IMG/VR virus record: IMGVR_UViG_3300045988_138743
Length of the DNA stretch: 35,847 nucleotides
Reading direction: 5' to 3' (one strand)
Source of the DNA: a virus
A model generated the notes under the pieces. It did not search any database, was not told where the DNA came from, and saw nothing but the letters and a program-made list of their open reading frames with translations. The position numbers and the translations under genes are program-made. Positions within the stretch are counted from its first letter, which is position 1. Each line of letters starts with the position of its first letter. Positions 17,748 through 24,987 of this stretch are shown here, piece by piece.

Positions 17748-17843
17748 CCGGGCTTACCGGAGCACCACACGAAATGGATTTATTATGGTTCACAAGAGGA
17801 TTTGTTGTATATGGGTAGTTTTGCGGTGCTCCGGCAAGCCCGG
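17748..17843. repeat. Long GC-rich inverted repeat (19-bp arms, 1 mismatch, 58-nt spacer)
   Basis: CCGGGCTTACCGGAGCACC (17748..17766) pairs with GGTGCTCCGGCAAGCCCGG (17825..17843). Followed by atatattttttt on the plus strand. Confidence 0.85.
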
Positions 17844-17853
17844 ATATATTTTT

Positions 17854-18087
17854 TTATTGATTCAGCATGCACTTCACTTCTGCCTTGAGTTCAATGAGGC
17901 TTGCAAAGTATGCTGCCTCTGTGAGGGCTTTTTCTCTCTTGAGTTTCTGATACTGTTCCTCATTCCAGTCCTCTCTCGTGTTAGTACAGAAGCTATTGTA
18001 TTCTTCCTCTTTCTTGCAGTTTGTCTCATCTGCTTTATCTATCTTGGTGATGATTTTCTCAAGGCTGAGTGCTTCTTCCTTTGTCAA
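17854..18087 (-). CDS. Hypothetical early protein
   Basis: 77 aa, TTG start with RBS gagggagg. Confidence 0.5.
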   Translation of the reverse strand: MTKEEALSLEKIITKIDKADETNCKKEEEYNSFCTNTREDWNEEQYQKLKREKALTEAAYFASLIELKAEVKCMLNQ

Positions 18088-18122
18088 ATTCTTTCCTCCC
18101 TCTGTATTCTGTGTATTAAATC

Positions 18123-18181
18123 TTGCCTTTTTCTGCTTTTCAGTCGTATACTCTTCTTACAGGACGTTGCAGCGTCCGAGT
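18123..18181 (+). promoter_or_regulatory. Promoter plus conserved leader, copy 1 (drives moron 18205..18747)
   Basis: TTGCCT, 18 nt, TATACT, 3 nt, then CTTACAGGACGTTGCAGCGTCCGAGT. 36 of 40 nt (18142..18181) match 19313..19352. Confidence 0.6.
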
Positions 18182-18204
18182 AAATATATAAGTGAGGTAT
18201 TTTT

Positions 18205-18747
18205 ATGTCTTTAACACCTTCTGATGTCATTCAATTAATTGGTATACTAGCATCTCTCATTACAAGCGTTATTGCTATAATTATTTCTGTATTAACACTC
18301 AAACAAAACTCTAAAATGATTGATGAAACATCACGTCCTTATGTAGCCATATACGCTAAAACCACAAATTTCCAATCGCCGCAATATTACTTAGTCATAA
18401 AGAATTTTGGACAAACTGGAGCAACTATATCTTCAATAAAATGTTCTCCTGATATCACTCCATTCTCTATTCGAAGTGATCACATTCCATTTTCCAATTT
18501 TGCAGAAACATATATTGCTCCCGGCCAATCATTTATATGCAATGTTAAGGCAAGGGAATTCTGTTCACAGAAAGAAATATTTTATTTCGATATAACTTAT
18601 ATTGGAAATGGAAAGGAATACCATGATACATATCCTATAAATCCAAAAGCAGATGCTGATTTAATACATGTAAGGGCAGCTACTGTTGGTGATGAACTTC
18701 GCAGTATCTCATACTCTCTACAGGATTTAATTGAAAAGCAGTTATAA
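18205..18747 (+). CDS. Membrane-anchored moron protein (N-terminal TM plus about 140-aa soluble domain), function unknown
   Basis: 180 aa, RBS gtgagg, TM segment VIQLIGILASLITSVIAIIISVL. AT-rich and opposite in orientation to the surrounding early operon. Confidence 0.65.
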   Translation: MSLTPSDVIQLIGILASLITSVIAIIISVLTLKQNSKMIDETSRPYVAIYAKTTNFQSPQYYLVIKNFGQTGATISSIKCSPDITPFSIRSDHIPFSNFAETYIAPGQSFICNVKAREFCSQKEIFYFDITYIGNGKEYHDTYPINPKADADLIHVRAATVGDELRSISYSLQDLIEKQL

Positions 18748-18998: not shown

Positions 18999-19268
18999 TC
19001 ACTCCCCTTCCCCCTGCATCCTGTCCGACAGCGCTTTTGCATGCAGTACTACAGTCTTCATTTCTGTTGCATCTACACCAAACTCTCGCATCTTCTCTTC
19101 CAAGGGTACCGGCTCATGGTCTTTCTTGGGGTACTGCTGATATATGCTCTCTGCAGCATGGAGTCCATACCGGTAAAAGGATTTCACCGCCAACTCCGGT
19201 GTGATAGTTCCTTTTCCCTGTACAGTGCACCTGCTCCTGTCCTTGTAGGTGAAAAATATTTTCCACAT
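18999..19268 (-). CDS. Hypothetical early protein (full-length paralog of 19979..20161)
   Basis: 89 aa, starting MWKIFFTYKDRSRCTVQGKGTITPELAVK... Confidence 0.55.
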   Translation of the reverse strand: MWKIFFTYKDRSRCTVQGKGTITPELAVKSFYRYGLHAAESIYQQYPKKDHEPVPLEEKMREFGVDATEMKTVVLHAKALSDRMQGEGE

Positions 19269-19373: not shown

Positions 19374-19721
19374 ATGAGTAATAATGATTTATCATTAATA
19401 GAAAAATTTAAGTCTTTAATGCAACAAGCTATGTTATATGCTCAATACTCTCACGATTATATTTTTGATGATTCTGTTGATGATTCTGTTGCTATTGCAT
19501 ATCTGAATATTGCGGCTTCAAAATTCGCTGCTGCAGAATCTCTTTACTATTCATGCTTTAACATTTTGGAACGTGATGAAGCTGAAAGTATTTTTCACAT
19601 TTTTGACGTATATATGGTTGAAATGTTGACCAATCATAAGACTGAGCACTCTCATCAATGGACAGATATCGAGTACAATCGTTTAAAGGATGCTTTCGAT
19701 TCTTCAGCGTTTGCATTTTAA
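19374..19721 (+). CDS. Moron protein, cytoplasmic, function unknown
   Basis: 115 aa, RBS aaaggagga, AT-rich, opposite strand to the early operon. Confidence 0.6.
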   Translation: MSNNDLSLIEKFKSLMQQAMLYAQYSHDYIFDDSVDDSVAIAYLNIAASKFAAAESLYYSCFNILERDEAESIFHIFDVYMVEMLTNHKTEHSHQWTDIEYNRLKDAFDSSAFAF

Positions 19722-19978: not shown

Positions 19979-20161
19979 TTAATCGCTTAATAAAATCATT
20001 ATTGCAATTATTAAAAACGGGAGAAAAAGTATTACTTCTGTCATGGTTTTGTCCTTTCTCGTATTGAATCTAACTTTCACCGCCAACTCCGGTGTGATGA
20101 TTCCTTTTCCTTTTACAGTGCATTTACTCTTGTCTCTGTAAGTAAAAAATATTTTCCACAT
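19979..20161 (-). pseudogene. Truncated 5' paralog of gene 18999..19268, read through into a short hydrophobic peptide
   Basis: MWKIFFTYRDKSKCTVKGKGIITPELAVK then diverges. Contains an internal ATG at 20043 (MTEVILFLPFLIIAIMILLSD). Confidence 0.5.
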
Positions 20162-20186
20162 GATCTTTTCCTTTTTATTTCGCTAT

Positions 20187-20203
20187 ATCAAATTTAATTT
20201 GAT
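20187..20203. promoter_or_regulatory. Operator-like 17-bp palindrome O1 (ATCAAATTTAATTTGAT)
   Basis: Perfect palindrome immediately 3' of the cro-like stop codon. Confidence 0.6.
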
Positions 20204-20404
20204 TTAATCAGCAAAAAAAATATAATCTAATGGTATTTTATATATCACCGCCAATTCTTTCGCTTGTGTAATAGAGGGTTGTGATGTTCCCTTTTCCCAA
20301 TTAACCAAAGTATTTTTTGATACACTCATTGCCTTTGCTGCCTCTGTTTGCGTCATTTCAGCATTTACTCTAGCGGCGGCTAAACTTATCTGTAACTTAC
20401 TCAC
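20204..20404 (-). CDS. Cro-like XRE-family HTH regulator
   Basis: 66 aa, GTG start. MTQTEAAKAMSVSKNTLVNWEKG is the HTH. Divergent from the CI-like repressor gene. Confidence 0.8.
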   Translation of the reverse strand: MSKLQISLAAARVNAEMTQTEAAKAMSVSKNTLVNWEKGTSQPSITQAKELAVIYKIPLDYIFFAD

Positions 20405-20436
20405 TTACTTATTGCTCCTTTCCTTTTGTTGTCCTT

Positions 20437-20465
20437 ATAGTATATCAAATTAAATTTGATGTCAA
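20437..20465 (-). promoter_or_regulatory. Early (cro-side) promoter
   Basis: On the minus strand: TTGACA, 17 nt, TACTAT. The spacer is filled by operator O2. Confidence 0.6.
20444..20460. promoter_or_regulatory. Operator-like palindrome O2 (ATCAAATTAAATTTGAT)
   Basis: 16 of 17 positions identical to O1, with the same TATATCAAATT flank. Confidence 0.6.
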
Positions 20466-20495
20466 TACTAAAATCCAATTTATTTTGTTTTTTTG

Positions 20496-20524
20496 TTGAC
20501 TGTGATAAAATTTAATTGTATTAT
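20496..20524 (+). promoter_or_regulatory. Repressor (cI-side) promoter
   Basis: TTGACT, 17 nt, TATTAT. The spacer contains the degenerate operator O3. Confidence 0.55.
20505..20521. promoter_or_regulatory. Degenerate operator O3 (ATAAAATTTAATTGTAT)
   Basis: 14 of 17 positions match O1. Confidence 0.4.
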
Positions 20525-20547
20525 CAGTATATAAGGAGGAAATAAAG

Positions 20548-21189
20548 ATGGTTAAAGATAAGCAAAAAGCTATTTTTTCAAAAAACCTTAATTCTTATAT
20601 CGCAAAAAGTGAAAAGACACAGCTTGAAATTGCCAAATCAATTGGCGTATCTCCTCAAACCTTTAATACATGGTGCAAAGGAATAGCCATTCCTCGAATG
20701 GGAAAAGTACAAGCTTTGGCTGATTACTTTAATATAAATAAGTCTGATTTAATAGAAGATAAGAAATTAAATATAGATACTGTGCCAATAGAATCCGGCT
20801 ACACTATCCCAGTACTCGGTCGTGTTGCTGCTGGATATGGGAAAGAAGCTGTTGAGGAAGTAATCGGTCAAATAGAGATTTCTCCCGCTTTAGCTGCAAA
20901 GGGTGATTACTTCGGTCTGCTGATTAAGGGTGACAGCATGATACCTACTCTGTATGATGGTGATACCGTTATCGTACAACGTGTCGATGATGCCGAATCA
21001 GGTGATCTTGTGATTGCTCTCGTCAATGGACATGATGCAACTTGCAAACGATTGCAGAAATATGCAGAAGGGATTGCTCTCATACCACAGAATCCTGTAT
21101 ATGAGCCTATGCGTTTTACTGAATCAGAAATAGATACTACCCCGGTTAAGATACTTGGTAAAGTCATTGAAATGAGAAGAAAATTTTAA
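20548..21189 (+). CDS. CI-like repressor (XRE HTH plus S24 LexA-type autopeptidase)
   Basis: HTH is TQLEIAKSIGVSPQTFNTWCKG. Ala-Gly cleavage site in RVAAGYG. GDSM catalytic Ser and a downstream Lys in ATCKRL. Confidence 0.9.
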   Translation: MVKDKQKAIFSKNLNSYIAKSEKTQLEIAKSIGVSPQTFNTWCKGIAIPRMGKVQALADYFNINKSDLIEDKKLNIDTVPIESGYTIPVLGRVAAGYGKEAVEEVIGQIEISPALAAKGDYFGLLIKGDSMIPTLYDGDTVIVQRVDDAESGDLVIALVNGHDATCKRLQKYAEGIALIPQNPVYEPMRFTESEIDTTPVKILGKVIEMRRKF

Positions 21190-21259
21190 TGAGGTTTTAT
21201 CCCATGCATCCTGCCCTTATATATGTTAAGTCTATGAAATTAAGTAGAAGGGAGTTCCA

Positions 21260-21952
21260 ATGCGAAAGAAAATATATAATATTCTTAACCAAAATGCCAT
21301 TTATGATACATTTATGTTTACAGTCATAATTATGAGCATTGTTCCATTGGCTTTTGTTAAACAACAATCCTGGATGACATTAATTGATAGGATAACTGTT
21401 ATCATTTTTATTGTTGATTATATTTTACGGTGGTTCGTAGCTGATAAGCTTAGTAATAAGCTTAATAAATTTATACTATATCCACTAACTCCAATGGCGA
21501 TAATTGATTTATTGTCCATTCTTCCATCAATAACATTATTGAATAGCAGCTTTAAGTTACTAAAAATTTTTAGATTATTTAGATCTCTGCGATTACTTAA
21601 GATTTTAAAGTTAGTTAGATATTCTAAAAGCATTACTATGATTTGTAATGTTTTCAAAAAGCAAAAAGAGACATTTATTACCATATTGGTCATGGCTATT
21701 ACATATATTCTGGTTTCAGCTCTGGTAATCATTAATGTTGAGCCAGAAACGTTCCCAACATATTTTGATGCCCTATATTGGGCTACGATATCATTAACCA
21801 CTGTTGGTTATGGTGATGTGTATGCAGTAACTACAATCGGAAAAATTATTACTATGATTTCATCTTTCCTAGGAATTGCTGTTGTCGCCTTACCGGCTGG
21901 TATAATAACGTCAGGTTTAATGGATGAATTAAGCAAATCACATGATGAATAG
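21260..21952 (+). CDS. 6-TM voltage-gated-type potassium channel
   Basis: Selectivity filter TTVGYGD. S4-like helix with a basic residue every third position (LLKIFRLFRSLRLLKILKLVRY). Six hydrophobic segments. RBS aagggag. Confidence 0.85.
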   Translation: MRKKIYNILNQNAIYDTFMFTVIIMSIVPLAFVKQQSWMTLIDRITVIIFIVDYILRWFVADKLSNKLNKFILYPLTPMAIIDLLSILPSITLLNSSFKLLKIFRLFRSLRLLKILKLVRYSKSITMICNVFKKQKETFITILVMAITYILVSALVIINVEPETFPTYFDALYWATISLTTVGYGDVYAVTTIGKIITMISSFLGIAVVALPAGIITSGLMDELSKSHDE

Positions 21953-21975
21953 CATAAGTTTAAGGAGGAATTTAT

Positions 21976-22824
21976 ATGGCAATGATTAAATGCCCTGAAT
22001 GTGGAAAAGATATTTCTAATCAGTCAGACAAATGTATATACTGTGGTTTTCCTATAAGAAATGAAGATATGATAGTCTGTAGCAACTGCGGAGTTCTTAA
22101 CCAGGCAGGAAGTACATTCTGCTCTTCCTGTGGTAATCCTCTGGTTAAAGGTATTACTGCTCCGTCAACGGCAAAGGCACATAAATCTGCTAATAAGAAA
22201 AAACACTCAAAGAAACGACATAGTAAAGCACCTCTTTTTATGTCCATATTCTTCTTATTACTAATTTTAATAGCAGTCATTGTTTTCAGATGGGCTATTC
22301 AATCAGGCAGACTTGAAGTTGTAATAAAGGATCCTGATACAAATGAAAGCTATCAGCTCATATCAAGTAGCGGTTTGTTCAATGTTGCATTAACAATTCC
22401 TGCAGAATATGTTGAAGGCACAACTCAAAAGGAGCTCAATAAACAAGCCAAGGAAGGAACTTTTAAATCTGCCACACTGAACAAAGATGGAAGTGTTACA
22501 TATGTCATGAGTAAATCTCAACACAAGGAAATGTTGAACACGCTTAAGGATTCTATCGCAGATGAACTTAATAAAATTCCTAACTCTACCGACTATCCAA
22601 ATGTAACTAAAGTCGAAGCCAATGACGATTATACCAAATTTACTGTTACCACAGCCAGTACAGAGCTTTCGTTTGAGGAGCAATTTCTTAGTGTCCAGCT
22701 TTACATATATGGAGGAATGTATAATGCATTTAATAATTTATCCCCTGTTATATCTGTTGATTATGTAAATGCAGACTCCGGAGCTACAATTTACTCTGGA
22801 AAATCCTCTGATATAACTAATTAA
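21976..22824 (+). CDS. Double zinc-ribbon membrane protein with an extracytoplasmic C-terminal domain
   Basis: CPECG..CIYCG and CSNCG..CSSCG motifs, a K-rich linker, TM segment LFMSIFFLLLILIAVIVF, then about 170 aa of soluble domain. RBS aaggagg, 23 nt after the channel gene. Confidence 0.75.
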   Translation: MAMIKCPECGKDISNQSDKCIYCGFPIRNEDMIVCSNCGVLNQAGSTFCSSCGNPLVKGITAPSTAKAHKSANKKKHSKKRHSKAPLFMSIFFLLLILIAVIVFRWAIQSGRLEVVIKDPDTNESYQLISSSGLFNVALTIPAEYVEGTTQKELNKQAKEGTFKSATLNKDGSVTYVMSKSQHKEMLNTLKDSIADELNKIPNSTDYPNVTKVEANDDYTKFTVTTASTELSFEEQFLSVQLYIYGGMYNAFNNLSPVISVDYVNADSGATIYSGKSSDITN

Positions 22825-22843
22825 ACTGTTTTAAATTCATAGT

Positions 22844-22866
22844 TTTGCGCCGGCGCAAATTTTAAT
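22844..22866 (+). terminator. Rho-independent terminator of the cI / channel / zinc-ribbon operon
   Basis: TTTGCGCCGGCGCAAA palindrome followed by ttttaat. Confidence 0.7.
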
Positions 22867-22886
22867 CTTATTTTTAATATGAATAC

Positions 22887-22914
22887 TTGACAAGACTAAT
22901 TCATATGCTAAAAT
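22887..22914 (+). promoter_or_regulatory. Strong sigma-70-type promoter with extended -10
   Basis: TTGACA, 16 nt, (TGc)TAAAAT. Confidence 0.6.
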
Positions 22915-22920
22915 ATAGCT

Positions 22921-22982
22921 AATTAGCGAATGACTGCTGTGCGGTCGCAAAATTAGTCTTGGTTTATTCCAAGGCTTTTTTT
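22921..22982 (+). ncRNA. Candidate about 60-nt sRNA / attenuating leader
   Basis: The promoter is followed by hairpin CTAATTAGCGA..TCGCAAAATTAG. Then comes terminator CTTGG-tttatt-CCAAG plus a T7 run. The tract aattagtcttg is complementary to caagactaatt in the promoter spacer. Confidence 0.3.
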
Positions 22983-23002
22983 GCGTTTATGAGGATTTTA
23001 CA

Positions 23003-23158
23003 ATGAATAAACAAATAACTTATACTGACGTATATAGTCAGCTAGAAAAATTAAAATCTCAAAATCTTATAATATCAGATGAGGCTTTTGCTATTAGTGC
23101 TCTTTCGAGATATGGTTATTCAACCCTAATCAAAGTCTCTTGGTTTAGCACCGTGTAA
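23003..23158 (+). pseudogene. Truncated Abi_2 (AbiD/AbiF-like) abortive-infection gene, N-terminal 51 codons only
   Basis: MNKQITYTDVYSQLEKLKSQNLIISDEAFAISALSRYGYSTLIK matches the usual Abi_2 N-terminus (QI..L..RGL.I.D...A...L....YY.L.GY), then stops. Confidence 0.5.
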
Positions 23159-23307
23159 AAGGTGCTGTAACTAAACAACCGCCCTGCAGCTACCAACTGC
23201 AGAGCGATTATATAGATGTTACCTATCAACCCGAGGGCCAATATAATAACTCCCTAAGCAAGTCTTATTATATCACATGCCCTCTTTTTTAGAAAGGGGC
23301 TTTTTAT

Positions 23308-24987
23308 ATGTCTAAAACTGTCGCTATCTATGTCAGGGTTTCCACAGGGAAACAGGCTGACAGAGACTCTATCCCTTTTCAGATTCAGGAATGCTCCAAC
23401 TATGTGAAGCATTTTCTTAAAACTGAAAATTTTGAAGTATTCAAGGATGCTGGGCGCTCCGGCAAGAACACTCACCGTCCGGAGTATCAGAGAATGATTG
23501 AAAAGGTCAAAGCCGGCATGATTTCTCATGTCGTGGTGTACAAGATCGACCGTATTTCACGTAATCTCGTGGACTTCTCTATCATGTACAATGATTTCAA
23601 AGAGCACAAGGTTGCATTCATCTCTTTAAATGAGCAGTTCGACACCTCTAGTGCCATCGGTGAAGCCGTGCTCAAGATTATCCTCGTGTTTGCTGAGCTT
23701 GAGCGTAAGCTCACAGGTGAGCGTGTGCGTGACATCATGATGAACCGCGCGCTCGATGGCAAGTGGAACGGTGCCAGGGTGCCGTATGGCTGGGACTGGG
23801 ATACAAAGAAGCAATGCCCGGTGCATTCTGATACTGAGGCAGAATATGCCCGGATGATGTACAGGCTCTATGATGAGTGCCACTCTACCTGTGTGGTGCG
23901 TGATTACTGTAATGCTCACGACATCCCGACCAAGCGTGGCGGTGAGTGGACCAGCAAGACCGTTGCTGATTTTCTGAGGAATCCTATGAATGTCGGTGAT
24001 TATCGCTACAATTATAGGAAATCTGCCAGAGGTAAGAGGAATGATCCGTCTGAGGTTATCTATGTGAAGGATGTATTTCCACCTCTTATTGACAGAGAGC
24101 TCTATGAGAGGGTGACTCATCAGATGGACCTGAACACCTTCGGACTCGGCAAGGATGGGCGCAAGGTGGTCAGCAAGAAGACTCATGTGTTCGGCGGTCT
24201 TGTCGTGTGTGGTCTGTGCGGGGCTTTCTATCACTCCGATGCCGATGTGGTCAGAGCCGATGGTTTCAGGCCATCGAATTATCGATGCGGTGCTCACAAC
24301 AAAAAAATTCACTGCAAGGCAAAGGGCACCTCTGATGTGAAGCTCGGACCGTTTATCTTCAACTATATCTCAAATCTGGTCAAGGCTTCCAAGTCAAAGA
24401 AACTGCTGCACTCTGTCTCTGATCTGGAGCAGATACTCCTCACCGGCCCGGAGTTTGAGCAGGTGGCAGGCATCGCTGACATTGGACTGGATGTCACCTT
24501 TGACACTATCATGCATGGTTTCAAACCGAAGCGGTACACTGCTGCACCTTATACCGTCATCCGCTCCGGTGATTCTGATGCACTCACAGCAAAAAGAGAT
24601 AAGACCATCCGAGCGCTTGAGAGGCTCAAGAAGCTGTTTTTATTTGAAGATGATGCAATGAGTGAAAAAGAATATCTGATGTCTAAGAGGGAGCTTGAGG
24701 GCACGCTCAGCGATATAGAAAATGAGCTGTCAGCTCTTGAAGCCGACACTGCAGATACAAAATACGATGATATGTCTTTCATCTCCACTGCATCCGGATT
24801 TTTAATTGCTCATCAGATTGCATCAGGTGAGCACATCAACTACAGGGAGCTCTCCTGTGCCGTAGATGCAAAGGTGCTTAAGGATTTTGTGAACAGTGTG
24901 ATTGAGAGGATTGTTCTGCTGGACGGACGCGTGGCTTCGATAGAGTTTAAGAACGGACTCGTTCACGAGTTCCTTTACAGAGAATAA
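23308..24987 (+). CDS. int: Large serine recombinase (phage integrase)
   Basis: N-terminal resolvase motif VAIYVRVSTGKQ. Recombinase domain and Cys cluster CGLCG...YRCGAH. C-terminal coiled coil. 559 aa. Confidence 0.9.
   Translation: MSKTVAIYVRVSTGKQADRDSIPFQIQECSNYVKHFLKTENFEVFKDAGRSGKNTHRPEYQRMIEKVKAGMISHVVVYKIDRISRNLVDFSIMYNDFKEHKVAFISLNEQFDTSSAIGEAVLKIILVFAELERKLTGERVRDIMMNRALDGKWNGARVPYGWDWDTKKQCPVHSDTEAEYARMMYRLYDECHSTCVVRDYCNAHDIPTKRGGEWTSKTVADFLRNPMNVGDYRYNYRKSARGKRNDPSEVIYVKDVFPPLIDRELYERVTHQMDLNTFGLGKDGRKVVSKKTHVFGGLVVCGLCGAFYHSDADVVRADGFRPSNYRCGAHNKKIHCKAKGTSDVKLGPFIFNYISNLVKASKSKKLLHSVSDLEQILLTGPEFEQVAGIADIGLDVTFDTIMHGFKPKRYTAAPYTVIRSGDSDALTAKRDKTIRALERLKKLFLFEDDAMSEKEYLMSKRELEGTLSDIENELSALEADTADTKYDDMSFISTASGFLIAHQIASGEHINYRELSCAVDAKVLKDFVNSVIERIVLLDGRVASIEFKNGLVHEFLYRE

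Follow-up and report, generated by a model that had tools for sequence, protein, structure and literature searches.

A voltage-gated-type potassium channel gene behind the repressor of a temperate gut phage of Agathobacter rectalis

In the virus record IMGVR_UViG_3300045988_138743 of IMG/VR, a stretch of 35,847 nucleotides that was analysed as a whole and is called the window below, three genes follow each other on the plus strand between positions 20,548 and 22,866. The first codes for a repressor, the second for a small K+ channel of the voltage-gated type and the third for a membrane protein with zinc ribbons (ZnR). From the sequence alone it had been proposed that channel and ZnR are a pair in the position of the rexAB genes of phage lambda, acting together in exclusion or abortive infection. 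Our analysis shifts the weight to the first of the two, as the finding that matters is the repressor-wired channel by itself and not the channel–ZnR pair.

The lysogeny module and its signals

The window is a complete temperate siphovirus-type genome of about 36 kb, with terminase, tape measure, endolysin and holin encoded on the opposite (minus) strand. From the source names of identical proteins the host was assigned as Agathobacter rectalis. The phage is present on thousands of gut metagenome contigs, and one allele of the channel and one of ZnR each turned up on about 1000 or more human gut contigs. For comparison we collected sibling phages, that is contigs from IMG/VR and ENA/Logan with a 98–100% identical channel, and compared them by protein mapping and DNA alignment; loci from this collection are cited below by their L numbers. 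All features of the module are compiled in Table 1.

The repressor gene shows everything that is expected from a CI/LexA-type protein, namely an N-terminal helix-turn-helix (HTH) domain and a C-terminal S24 peptidase domain with the Ala-Gly cleavage site (VAAGYG) and a Ser/Lys dyad formed by the serine of GDSM and the lysine of CKRL. Upstream of it are two promoter-like sites back to back, one at 20496-20524 on the plus strand for the repressor operon and one at 20465-20437 on the minus strand for the cro side. There are also two perfect 17-bp palindromes of the form ATCAAATT(N)AATTTGAT, at 20187-20203 and 20444-20460, against 0.08 expected by chance in the window, and the latter falls between the -35 and -10 elements of the cro-side promoter. 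Both palindromes are probably operators for the repressor and Cro, and together with the divergent cro-like gene and the back-to-back promoter-like sites they make up a standard genetic switch.

As the sequence-only reading had stated, repressor, channel and ZnR all lie on the plus strand behind one promoter, and the open reading frames (ORFs) leave exactly 70 and 23 nt between them. It had also seen no hairpin between the genes, which our folding confirmed, as neither the 70-nt gap (-11.9 kcal/mol, z score +0.31) nor the 23-nt gap (-3.9 kcal/mol, z score -1.1) folds better than shuffled sequence. In the promoter and terminator scan neither gap contained a terminator-like or a consensus promoter site on the plus strand. 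An own promoter for the channel was considered, but the 70-nt gap has no consensus site, though a weak one may be present. The terminator that had been said to close the unit does so, although it is hardly a strong one: its hairpin (22844-22859), which precedes a T-run, pairs 6 bp around a loop of 4 nt, and the region reaches only -6.3 kcal/mol (z score -0.2). It is identical in all sibling phages compared, and in siblings without ZnR the same hairpin TTTGCGCCGGCGCAAATTTT stands 4 nt past the stop codon of the channel. For these two reasons we regard it as the operon terminator, and from its place directly behind the channel in the ZnR-less siblings it follows that ZnR is an insertion between the channel and this terminator. 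With no terminator between the genes the layout supports the earlier view that channel and ZnR are placed for read-through from the repressor promoter, and cotranscription of both with cI appears likely from the arrangement.

The DNA between the genes also reveals how the module was assembled. The 64-nt leader of the channel starts directly after the repressor stop codon and is identical across the siblings whatever type of repressor precedes it. Since the conserved DNA begins 64 nt before the channel ATG at the stop codon of any repressor, the channel cassette has been attached to various repressors through this one joint. Behind the channel, the first 17 nt of the second joint (through AAGGAGG) also precede the gene for a PemK-like protein where that gene directly follows the channel (L011). 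The GC content changes from gene to gene, with 30.2% for the channel, 35.8% for ZnR, 38% for the repressor and 47.8% for the integrase (whole window 40.7%), and thus the lysogeny module is a compositional mosaic.

Table 1: Features of the lysogeny module and its surroundings in the window.
Feature	Position	Strand	Basis
17-bp perfect palindrome ATCAAATTTAATTTGAT, candidate operator directly past the cro-like gene	20187..20203		palindrome count in the window
cro-like HTH_3 gene, 66 aa, divergent from the repressor	20204..20404	-	HTH_3 2.7e-13
Switch region: cro-side promoter-like site, second palindrome, promoter-like site of the repressor operon	20437..20524		promoter scan and palindrome count
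CI/LexA-type autocleavable repressor, 213 aa	20548..21189	+	HTH_3 (7.2e-07) and Peptidase_S24 (E 2.9e-29); phrog_4 'transcriptional repressor' 6.9e-42
Leader of the channel cassette, 64 nt, ribosome binding site GGGAG, no hairpin or consensus promoter	21196..21259	+	sibling alignment, folding, scan
Minimal voltage-gated-type K+ channel with six transmembrane (TM) helices, 230 aa	21260..21952	+	Ion_trans 1.6e-24, Ion_trans_2 1.2e-14
Cassette joint CATAAGTTTAAGGAGGAATTTAT, 23 nt, strong ribosome binding site	21953..21975	+	sibling alignment
ZnR, bitopic membrane protein, 282 aa	21976..22824	+	DZR / Zn_Ribbon_1/3 (four CxxC), TM helix 86-104
Operon terminator, short GC hairpin and T-run	22844..22866	+	terminator scan, folding, sibling alignment
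Separate cassette start: promoter and structured 85-nt leader, preceding the Abi_2 gene in siblings	22887..22999	+	promoter scan, folding, alignment
Abi_2/AbiF stub, 51 codons	23003..23158	+	alignment to the 352-aa gene of siblings
Large serine recombinase (integrase), end of the lysogeny module	23308..24987	+	domain search

The channel in phages and in cellular genomes

The channel matches Ion_trans (PF00520) with 86.9 bits at a cut-off of 25 over residues 13-220, and its hydrophobic segments agree with six TM helices. Helix S4 carries a basic residue at every third position from 99 to 123 (K99, K102, R105, R108, R111, K114, K117, R120 and K123), and the pore shows the filter TTVGYGD, which corresponds to the K+ selectivity signature T-[VM]-G-Y-G-D, as well as a PAG hinge. 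There is no cytoplasmic ligand-binding domain, and as the protein ends about 12 residues past S6 it is a bare voltage sensor with a pore. When its sequence was compared with the PDB, S1–S6 matched KCNQ2 (2e-22), Kv2.1, Kv1.2 and KvAP (3e-15). The single NCBIfam match, an archaeal hyperpolarisation-activated channel, was far below the cut-off and was not used as evidence of membership. Among the PHROGs it matches phrog_7872 (5.9e-38), a family of no known function, and phage records label such genes merely as 'ion transporter'. The channel would form a homotetramer that is closed at resting potential and opened by a change in voltage.

We aligned it with the channels of other phages, and in 13 of them, which share 30–64% identity with the window channel, the residues D53, Y54 and R57 (S2), D83 (S3) and R105, R108 and R120 (S4) are invariant, as is the filter T-T-x-G-Y-G-D except for a V/M substitution. 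Invariant sensor and filter residues at this level of identity point to purifying selection on both parts, and because of them we rejected the reading of the channel as a non-functional hitchhiker.

In a tblastn search against 50,697 phage records 18 were found to carry an Ion_trans gene, and a blastn search of the region against phages matched only short pieces of repressor and channel. In Dulem virus 33 (56% identity) and in the Lactobacillus phages PLE2 and JNU_P5 (30% each) the channel is placed between the repressor module, which it follows directly, and the integrase; JNU_P5 also carries an Abi_2 gene at a later place in this module. A repressor-adjacent channel was also found in about 10 lineages from IMG/VR. 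At the diverged IMG/VR loci with 47–62% identity, Pfam searches identified an HTH_3/CI-type protein immediately upstream and co-oriented in L014, L015, L016, L017, L019, L020 and L027, and downstream of the channel there is a tyrosine or serine integrase or an IS30-type transposase. Counted over all 13 diverged phage loci (30–62% identity), 11 have a repressor module of the XRE/CI type immediately upstream and co-oriented, with an integrase, an insertion sequence (IS) element or the end of the module downstream. The integrase directly follows the channel at five loci (L015, L017 and L020/L022 among those from IMG/VR), so that there is no partner gene at these places. In L018 and L025 the channel adjoins lysis genes and not the repressor. 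Further Ion_trans genes are carried by lytic or jumbo phages (Acinetobacter phage MD-2021a and a Vibrio phage) and by the archaeal virus Halorubrum Humcor1. A decaying copy was seen in L026 (4480-5210), where a frameshift has split the channel into two overlapping ORFs of 88 and 158 aa; an IS30-type transposase follows in L026 and in L019.

Cellular homologues with at least 40% identity, taken from one genome per species, belong to gut Clostridia, Bacteroidales, Akkermansia, a spirochaete and actinomycetes. We classed their neighbours by Pfam scans, which replaced cruder self-built hidden Markov models (HMMs) for HTH proteins and integrases, and found them to be of the housekeeping type (UvrD, carboxylases, transporters, HSP20, SpoVAD). 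The immediate upstream neighbour is an HTH protein in only 1 of 30 cellular homologues versus the repressor module at 11 of 13 phage loci (Fisher p = 1.5e-7), and in a deliberately conservative recount of this difference in placement p was 6e-4. In a neighbour-joining tree phage and cellular channels interleave, and the channels of the Lactobacillus phages form a separate deep branch. Phages have thus captured an ordinary host voltage-gated K+ (Kv) channel, probably more than once, and selection keeps the phage channel functional and beside the repressor. Of the gene content, the modularity and the recurrent position next to the repressor we are highly confident. Our literature search, the coverage of which was incomplete so that an earlier description is possible, gave no paper on voltage-gated K+ channels of phages or prophages beside repressors.

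The zinc-ribbon protein and the exchangeable slots

ZnR starts with its four CxxC motifs, followed by a K/R-rich juxtamembrane stretch, the TM helix and a C-terminal domain of about 175 aa. As the basic stretch is N-terminal to the TM helix, the positive-inside rule predicts the zinc ribbons inside and the C-terminal domain outside the cell. The full-length protein is confined to A. rectalis phages, with the best 120 of 380 hits all being at least 98% identical, and a tblastn search of the 50,697 phage records gave no match. Its external domain is widespread: 1249 representative clusters were found at E <= 1e-3 and 598 at E <= 1e-10, and among the best 150 relatives about half have a lipoprotein signal, many are TM-anchored and about one in ten has N-terminal zinc ribbons. 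The domain has strongly conserved motifs and belongs to a large uncharacterised family of Firmicutes (lipo)proteins. Neither Pfam nor NCBIfam has a model for it, and a hint to TcaA in NCBIfam, which has a zinc-ribbon and TM architecture, was far below the cut-off and was not used. ZnR as a whole matches only zinc-ribbon families and PHROGs of no known function, and a PDB sequence search returned trivial zinc-finger matches only.

The external domain was also modelled with AlphaFold2 from an alignment of 40 sequences, resulting in three beta-beta-alpha units at a pLDDT of 90.9 and a pTM of 0.79. A Foldseek search of the model against the PDB gave no significant match (best E 0.05, TM score at most 0.33), and thus no function can be transferred from the fold. 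In BFVD it matched two other gut siphovirus proteins called 'double zinc ribbon' (TM score 0.83) and, more weakly, a gut siphovirus protein annotated as 'host cell surface-exposed lipoprotein'. Gut phages from IMG/VR (L033, L034, L038 and L046) carry one to three tandem genes for zinc-ribbon and TM proteins that start with MAMIKCPECG and differ in their C-terminal domains; in L038 and L046 these genes are just downstream of the repressor, and an integrase is also present at both loci. Such membrane proteins form a class that recurs among phages and has no known function.

Comparison of the siblings revealed a fixed order of slots with changing contents. A repressor, of which there are at least four types, is followed by either the channel or a 300-aa Bro-N protein, then by ZnR, which can be present or absent, then by a gene for an Abi_2 (352 aa), PemK-like (270 aa) or DUF8426 (343 aa) protein or a deletion, and finally by variants of the serine integrase. 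The channel is followed by Abi_2 in L005, L007, L008, L009, L010, L013 and L137 and by the PemK-like gene in L011. It is followed by ZnR and the PemK-like gene in L006/L031, L133, L134, L139-L142 and L144-L149, and by ZnR and Abi_2 in L135, L136 and L138. Bro-N and ZnR without the channel were found in L028, L030, L143 (and 9 similar places) and L150 (and 2 more).

The downstream slot is a swappable position for toxin and Abi genes. The window descends from the form with channel, ZnR and Abi_2. It retains the abi promoter and leader as well as ~130 nt from the start of the gene, after which about 900 nt of the abi gene have been deleted at a CAAAG microhomology near 23131-23135. While the 352-aa gene of the siblings matches Abi_2 at 1e-28, the 51-aa stub of the window shows no match. 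The cassette has a near-consensus promoter of its own (TTGACA-16-TAAAAT with TG), and its leader (-28.8 kcal/mol, z score -4.5) ends in a terminator-like hairpin. An Rfam search of positions 20000-23400 returned no family, the structured abi leader included. Prophage AbiF systems with an upstream antitoxin non-coding RNA have been described in C. difficile (PMC12373285), and the retained leader may be an RNA of this antitoxin type that has outlived its toxin. The PemK-like cargo (L011 5715-6527; L006 6586-7431; L133 5619-6431) shows a PemK/MazF-like domain (2.4e-10) at residues 70-137 of its 270 aa, with no evident gene for an antitoxin next to it.

With its integrase end the prophage borders on an aldehyde dehydrogenase gene in long A. 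rectalis contigs (L137 8035-8693; L144 7993-8849), which likely marks the integration site. Exchange is also visible in the early region on the minus strand, where three plus-strand ORFs are embedded, coding for an unmatched protein of 132 aa (17785-18183), a protein of 180 aa with an N-terminal TM helix that belongs to phrog_9607 (18205-18747) and a protein of 115 aa from phrog_20330 (19374-19721). In siblings a DUF2513 gene in the early region replaces some of these ORFs between 17785 and 19721, and they look like further accessory cassettes. Two small minus-strand ORFs in the same region, at 18999-19268 and 19979-20161, share a near-identical N-terminus of about 30 residues (MWKIFFTY.D.S.CTV.GKG.ITPELAVK) and diverge afterwards, representing a local partial duplication.

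Possible roles and relation to known systems

We read the region 20548-22866 as a lysogeny (immunity) operon, composed of the CI/LexA-type repressor gene and, behind it, two accessory genes ('morons') that are independent of each other, and give this reading a probability of about 0.5. The interval between repressor and integrase is the classic site of exclusion and abortive-infection genes in prophages, and with Abi_2 and PemK-like genes in the adjacent slot of the siblings the rexAB-like position claimed earlier is well founded. A membrane function in the lysogen at this position is plausible and, for the channel, gains weight from the recurrent and statistically enriched placement. The reading we favour for the channel is a role in defence or exclusion, though tentatively and at less than even odds. 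The channel would be made in the lysogen from the repressor promoter and, as it stands alone in many phages, would work alone, with the voltage sensor as sensor and the pore as effector. Shut at resting potential, it would open upon depolarisation, caused for example by DNA entry or membrane lesions by a superinfecting phage, and the efflux of K+ would then reset the membrane potential and deprive the invader of K+-dependent synthesis. The net result could be protection or exclusion at the level of the membrane for the lysogen. In its furthest form, which we think rather unlikely, this reading makes the Kv channel a self-contained, one-protein sensor-effector of infection-induced depolarisation, a device for exclusion or abortive infection that was taken from host genomes repeatedly by temperate phages of gut Firmicutes and lactobacilli and linked to their repressor promoters. 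ZnR would act separately at the surface, where it might block adsorption or DNA entry of other phages.

Several points weigh against this. The polarity of gating could be different, as some prokaryotic relatives are hyperpolarisation-activated, and a K+-selective pore drives the potential to the K+ equilibrium potential and repolarises the cell, so that a collapse as for Rex is not directly transferable. No PADLOC model matches the channel or ZnR, which agrees with the earlier statement that they are not a named defence system. The 64-nt leader may contain a weak internal promoter, and in this lineage channel and ZnR may cooperate after all, given the contigs with both genes described next, although nothing makes such cooperation necessary.

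The earlier idea that channel and zinc-ribbon protein form a dedicated two-component module, with sensor and effector or receptor masking and effector as in RexAB, could draw on the fact that both are membrane proteins encoded 23 nt apart in one operon. They indeed occur together in many A. rectalis prophages, and for one channel allele ZnR is beside the channel in 22 of 24 long contigs. The two genes are nevertheless separable, as each occurs without the other: ZnR is absent in 8 of the 11 distinct IMG/VR sibling contigs that show DNA after the channel, and the channel is missing from 13 of 24 long contigs with one particular ZnR allele. L004 even shows the scar of a ZnR deletion, with the 3' flank of ZnR joined directly to its first 35 nt, beside an intact channel. 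A ZnR homologue is missing at all 13 diverged phage channel loci (the 388-aa DZR protein in L016 is unrelated), the tblastn search found none in the phage records either, and there is no PADLOC match to RexA, RexB or another system. The pair as a dedicated module is thus not borne out, and we consider it highly improbable.

The main rival explanation is that the channel serves the host, as lysogenic conversion that adds auxiliary K+ homeostasis (uptake or release, adaptation to osmolarity or pH, or buffering of the potential) in the K+-rich gut. The channel family is mainly chromosomal with housekeeping-like neighbours, which fits a role in host fitness equally well as the role in defence; the interleaving of phage and cellular copies in the tree, the complete and canonical channel with no defence-specific domain and the extreme prevalence of the prophage in human gut samples speak for it as well. 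It accounts less well for the strong enrichment of the position behind the repressor in phage copies, for the Abi and toxin genes in the surrounding slots and for the lack of metabolic or transport partner genes, and on balance we find it doubtful. Very unlikely in our view is a function in the phage's own cycle, either by setting potential or K+ at the establishment of lysogeny or at induction, by timing the holin, or by a block of secondary infection in lytic growth like that of Kcv. It would suit the channels beside the lysis module in L018 and L025 and the Ion_trans genes of lytic and jumbo phages and an archaeal virus, but its orientation and its place in the repressor operon suggest that the channel is expressed while the lytic genes are off, and it neither belongs to the early lytic transcription unit nor points towards it.

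For ZnR, the genes Sie2009 and Ltp, which are located between repressor and integrase in temperate phages of lactic acid bacteria (lactococcal and S. thermophilus phages), offer the closest comparison. ZnR shares with them the repressor–integrase position, probably the repressor-linked expression, and a membrane-anchored external domain, the latter with its predicted TM helix at 86-104 and relatives that are mostly lipoproteins. It differs from Ltp in its anchor, which is a lipid there and a TM helix after cytoplasmic zinc ribbons here, and neither a sequence match to the Pfam family of Ltp, to Sie or to another named family nor a PDB fold match was found. Most likely ZnR would be an independent surface protein in the style of Sie and Ltp and hinder other phages at adsorption or at DNA entry.

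The channel itself resembles the prokaryotic voltage-gated K+ channels KvAP, KvLm and MVP and the eukaryotic Kv/KCNQ channels in its fold, the S4 ladder, the acidic countercharges in S2 and S3, the filter TTVGYGD and the PAG hinge. What distinguishes it is its place in the genome of a temperate phage, where it is linked to the repressor promoter. Another viral K+ channel, Kcv of chloroviruses, alters the membrane potential of the host and has been linked to the mutual exclusion of co-infecting viruses. In contrast to the channel described here it is a pore of two TM helices without a voltage sensor, which a eukaryotic virus carries in the membrane of its virion and which works during entry and not from a prophage.

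RexAB and the gene products gp30/gp31 of Sbash (PMC6426596) are similar in that accessory genes beside or cotranscribed with the repressor are expressed in the lysogen and that a membrane ion-conducting effector has been proposed to act against superinfection. As with these, channel and ZnR are downstream of the repressor and co-oriented with it. RexB and gp31 are proteins with four TM helices that are unrelated to Ion_trans, whereas here a channel of six TM helices with a built-in voltage sensor stands without a partner. RexA and gp30 carry DUF4747, which is present in none of the three window proteins, and the latter also include no RexB-like protein with four TM helices and no match to the RexAB models of PADLOC.

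The Hailong system consists of the ion channel HalA and the nucleotidyltransferase HalB (Tan et al. 2025, in the summary of PMC13434031), and a homologue from a P4 hotspot carries an IRK K+-channel domain (PMC13586616). The likeness to our locus is a tetrameric channel-type membrane protein on mobile elements, HalA being described as a depolarising anti-phage effector (PMC13434031). HalA is reported to be gated by oligo-dA via a cytoplasmic crown and to depend on HalB (PMC13434031), in contrast to the S1–S4 voltage sensor found here. The operon contains no nucleotidyltransferase domain, and the channel has no cytoplasmic crown.

Bacterial voltage-gated K+ channels are famous structural models, the physiology of which is largely unknown. 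The context in the repressor operon of a very abundant gut prophage, repeated in unrelated phages, suggests a selectable role in the lysogen, and lysogens that differ in a single gene offer a handle on the physiology of bacterial Kv channels. The locus is also a natural cassette system in which the shuffling of accessory and defence genes by gut phages can be followed. If the channel has an anti-phage role, electrical sensing by a classical ion channel would be a new logic that is distinct from RexAB and Hailong, and if it is indeed a one-protein sensor-effector, this would be the first clear physiological role for prokaryotic Kv channels.

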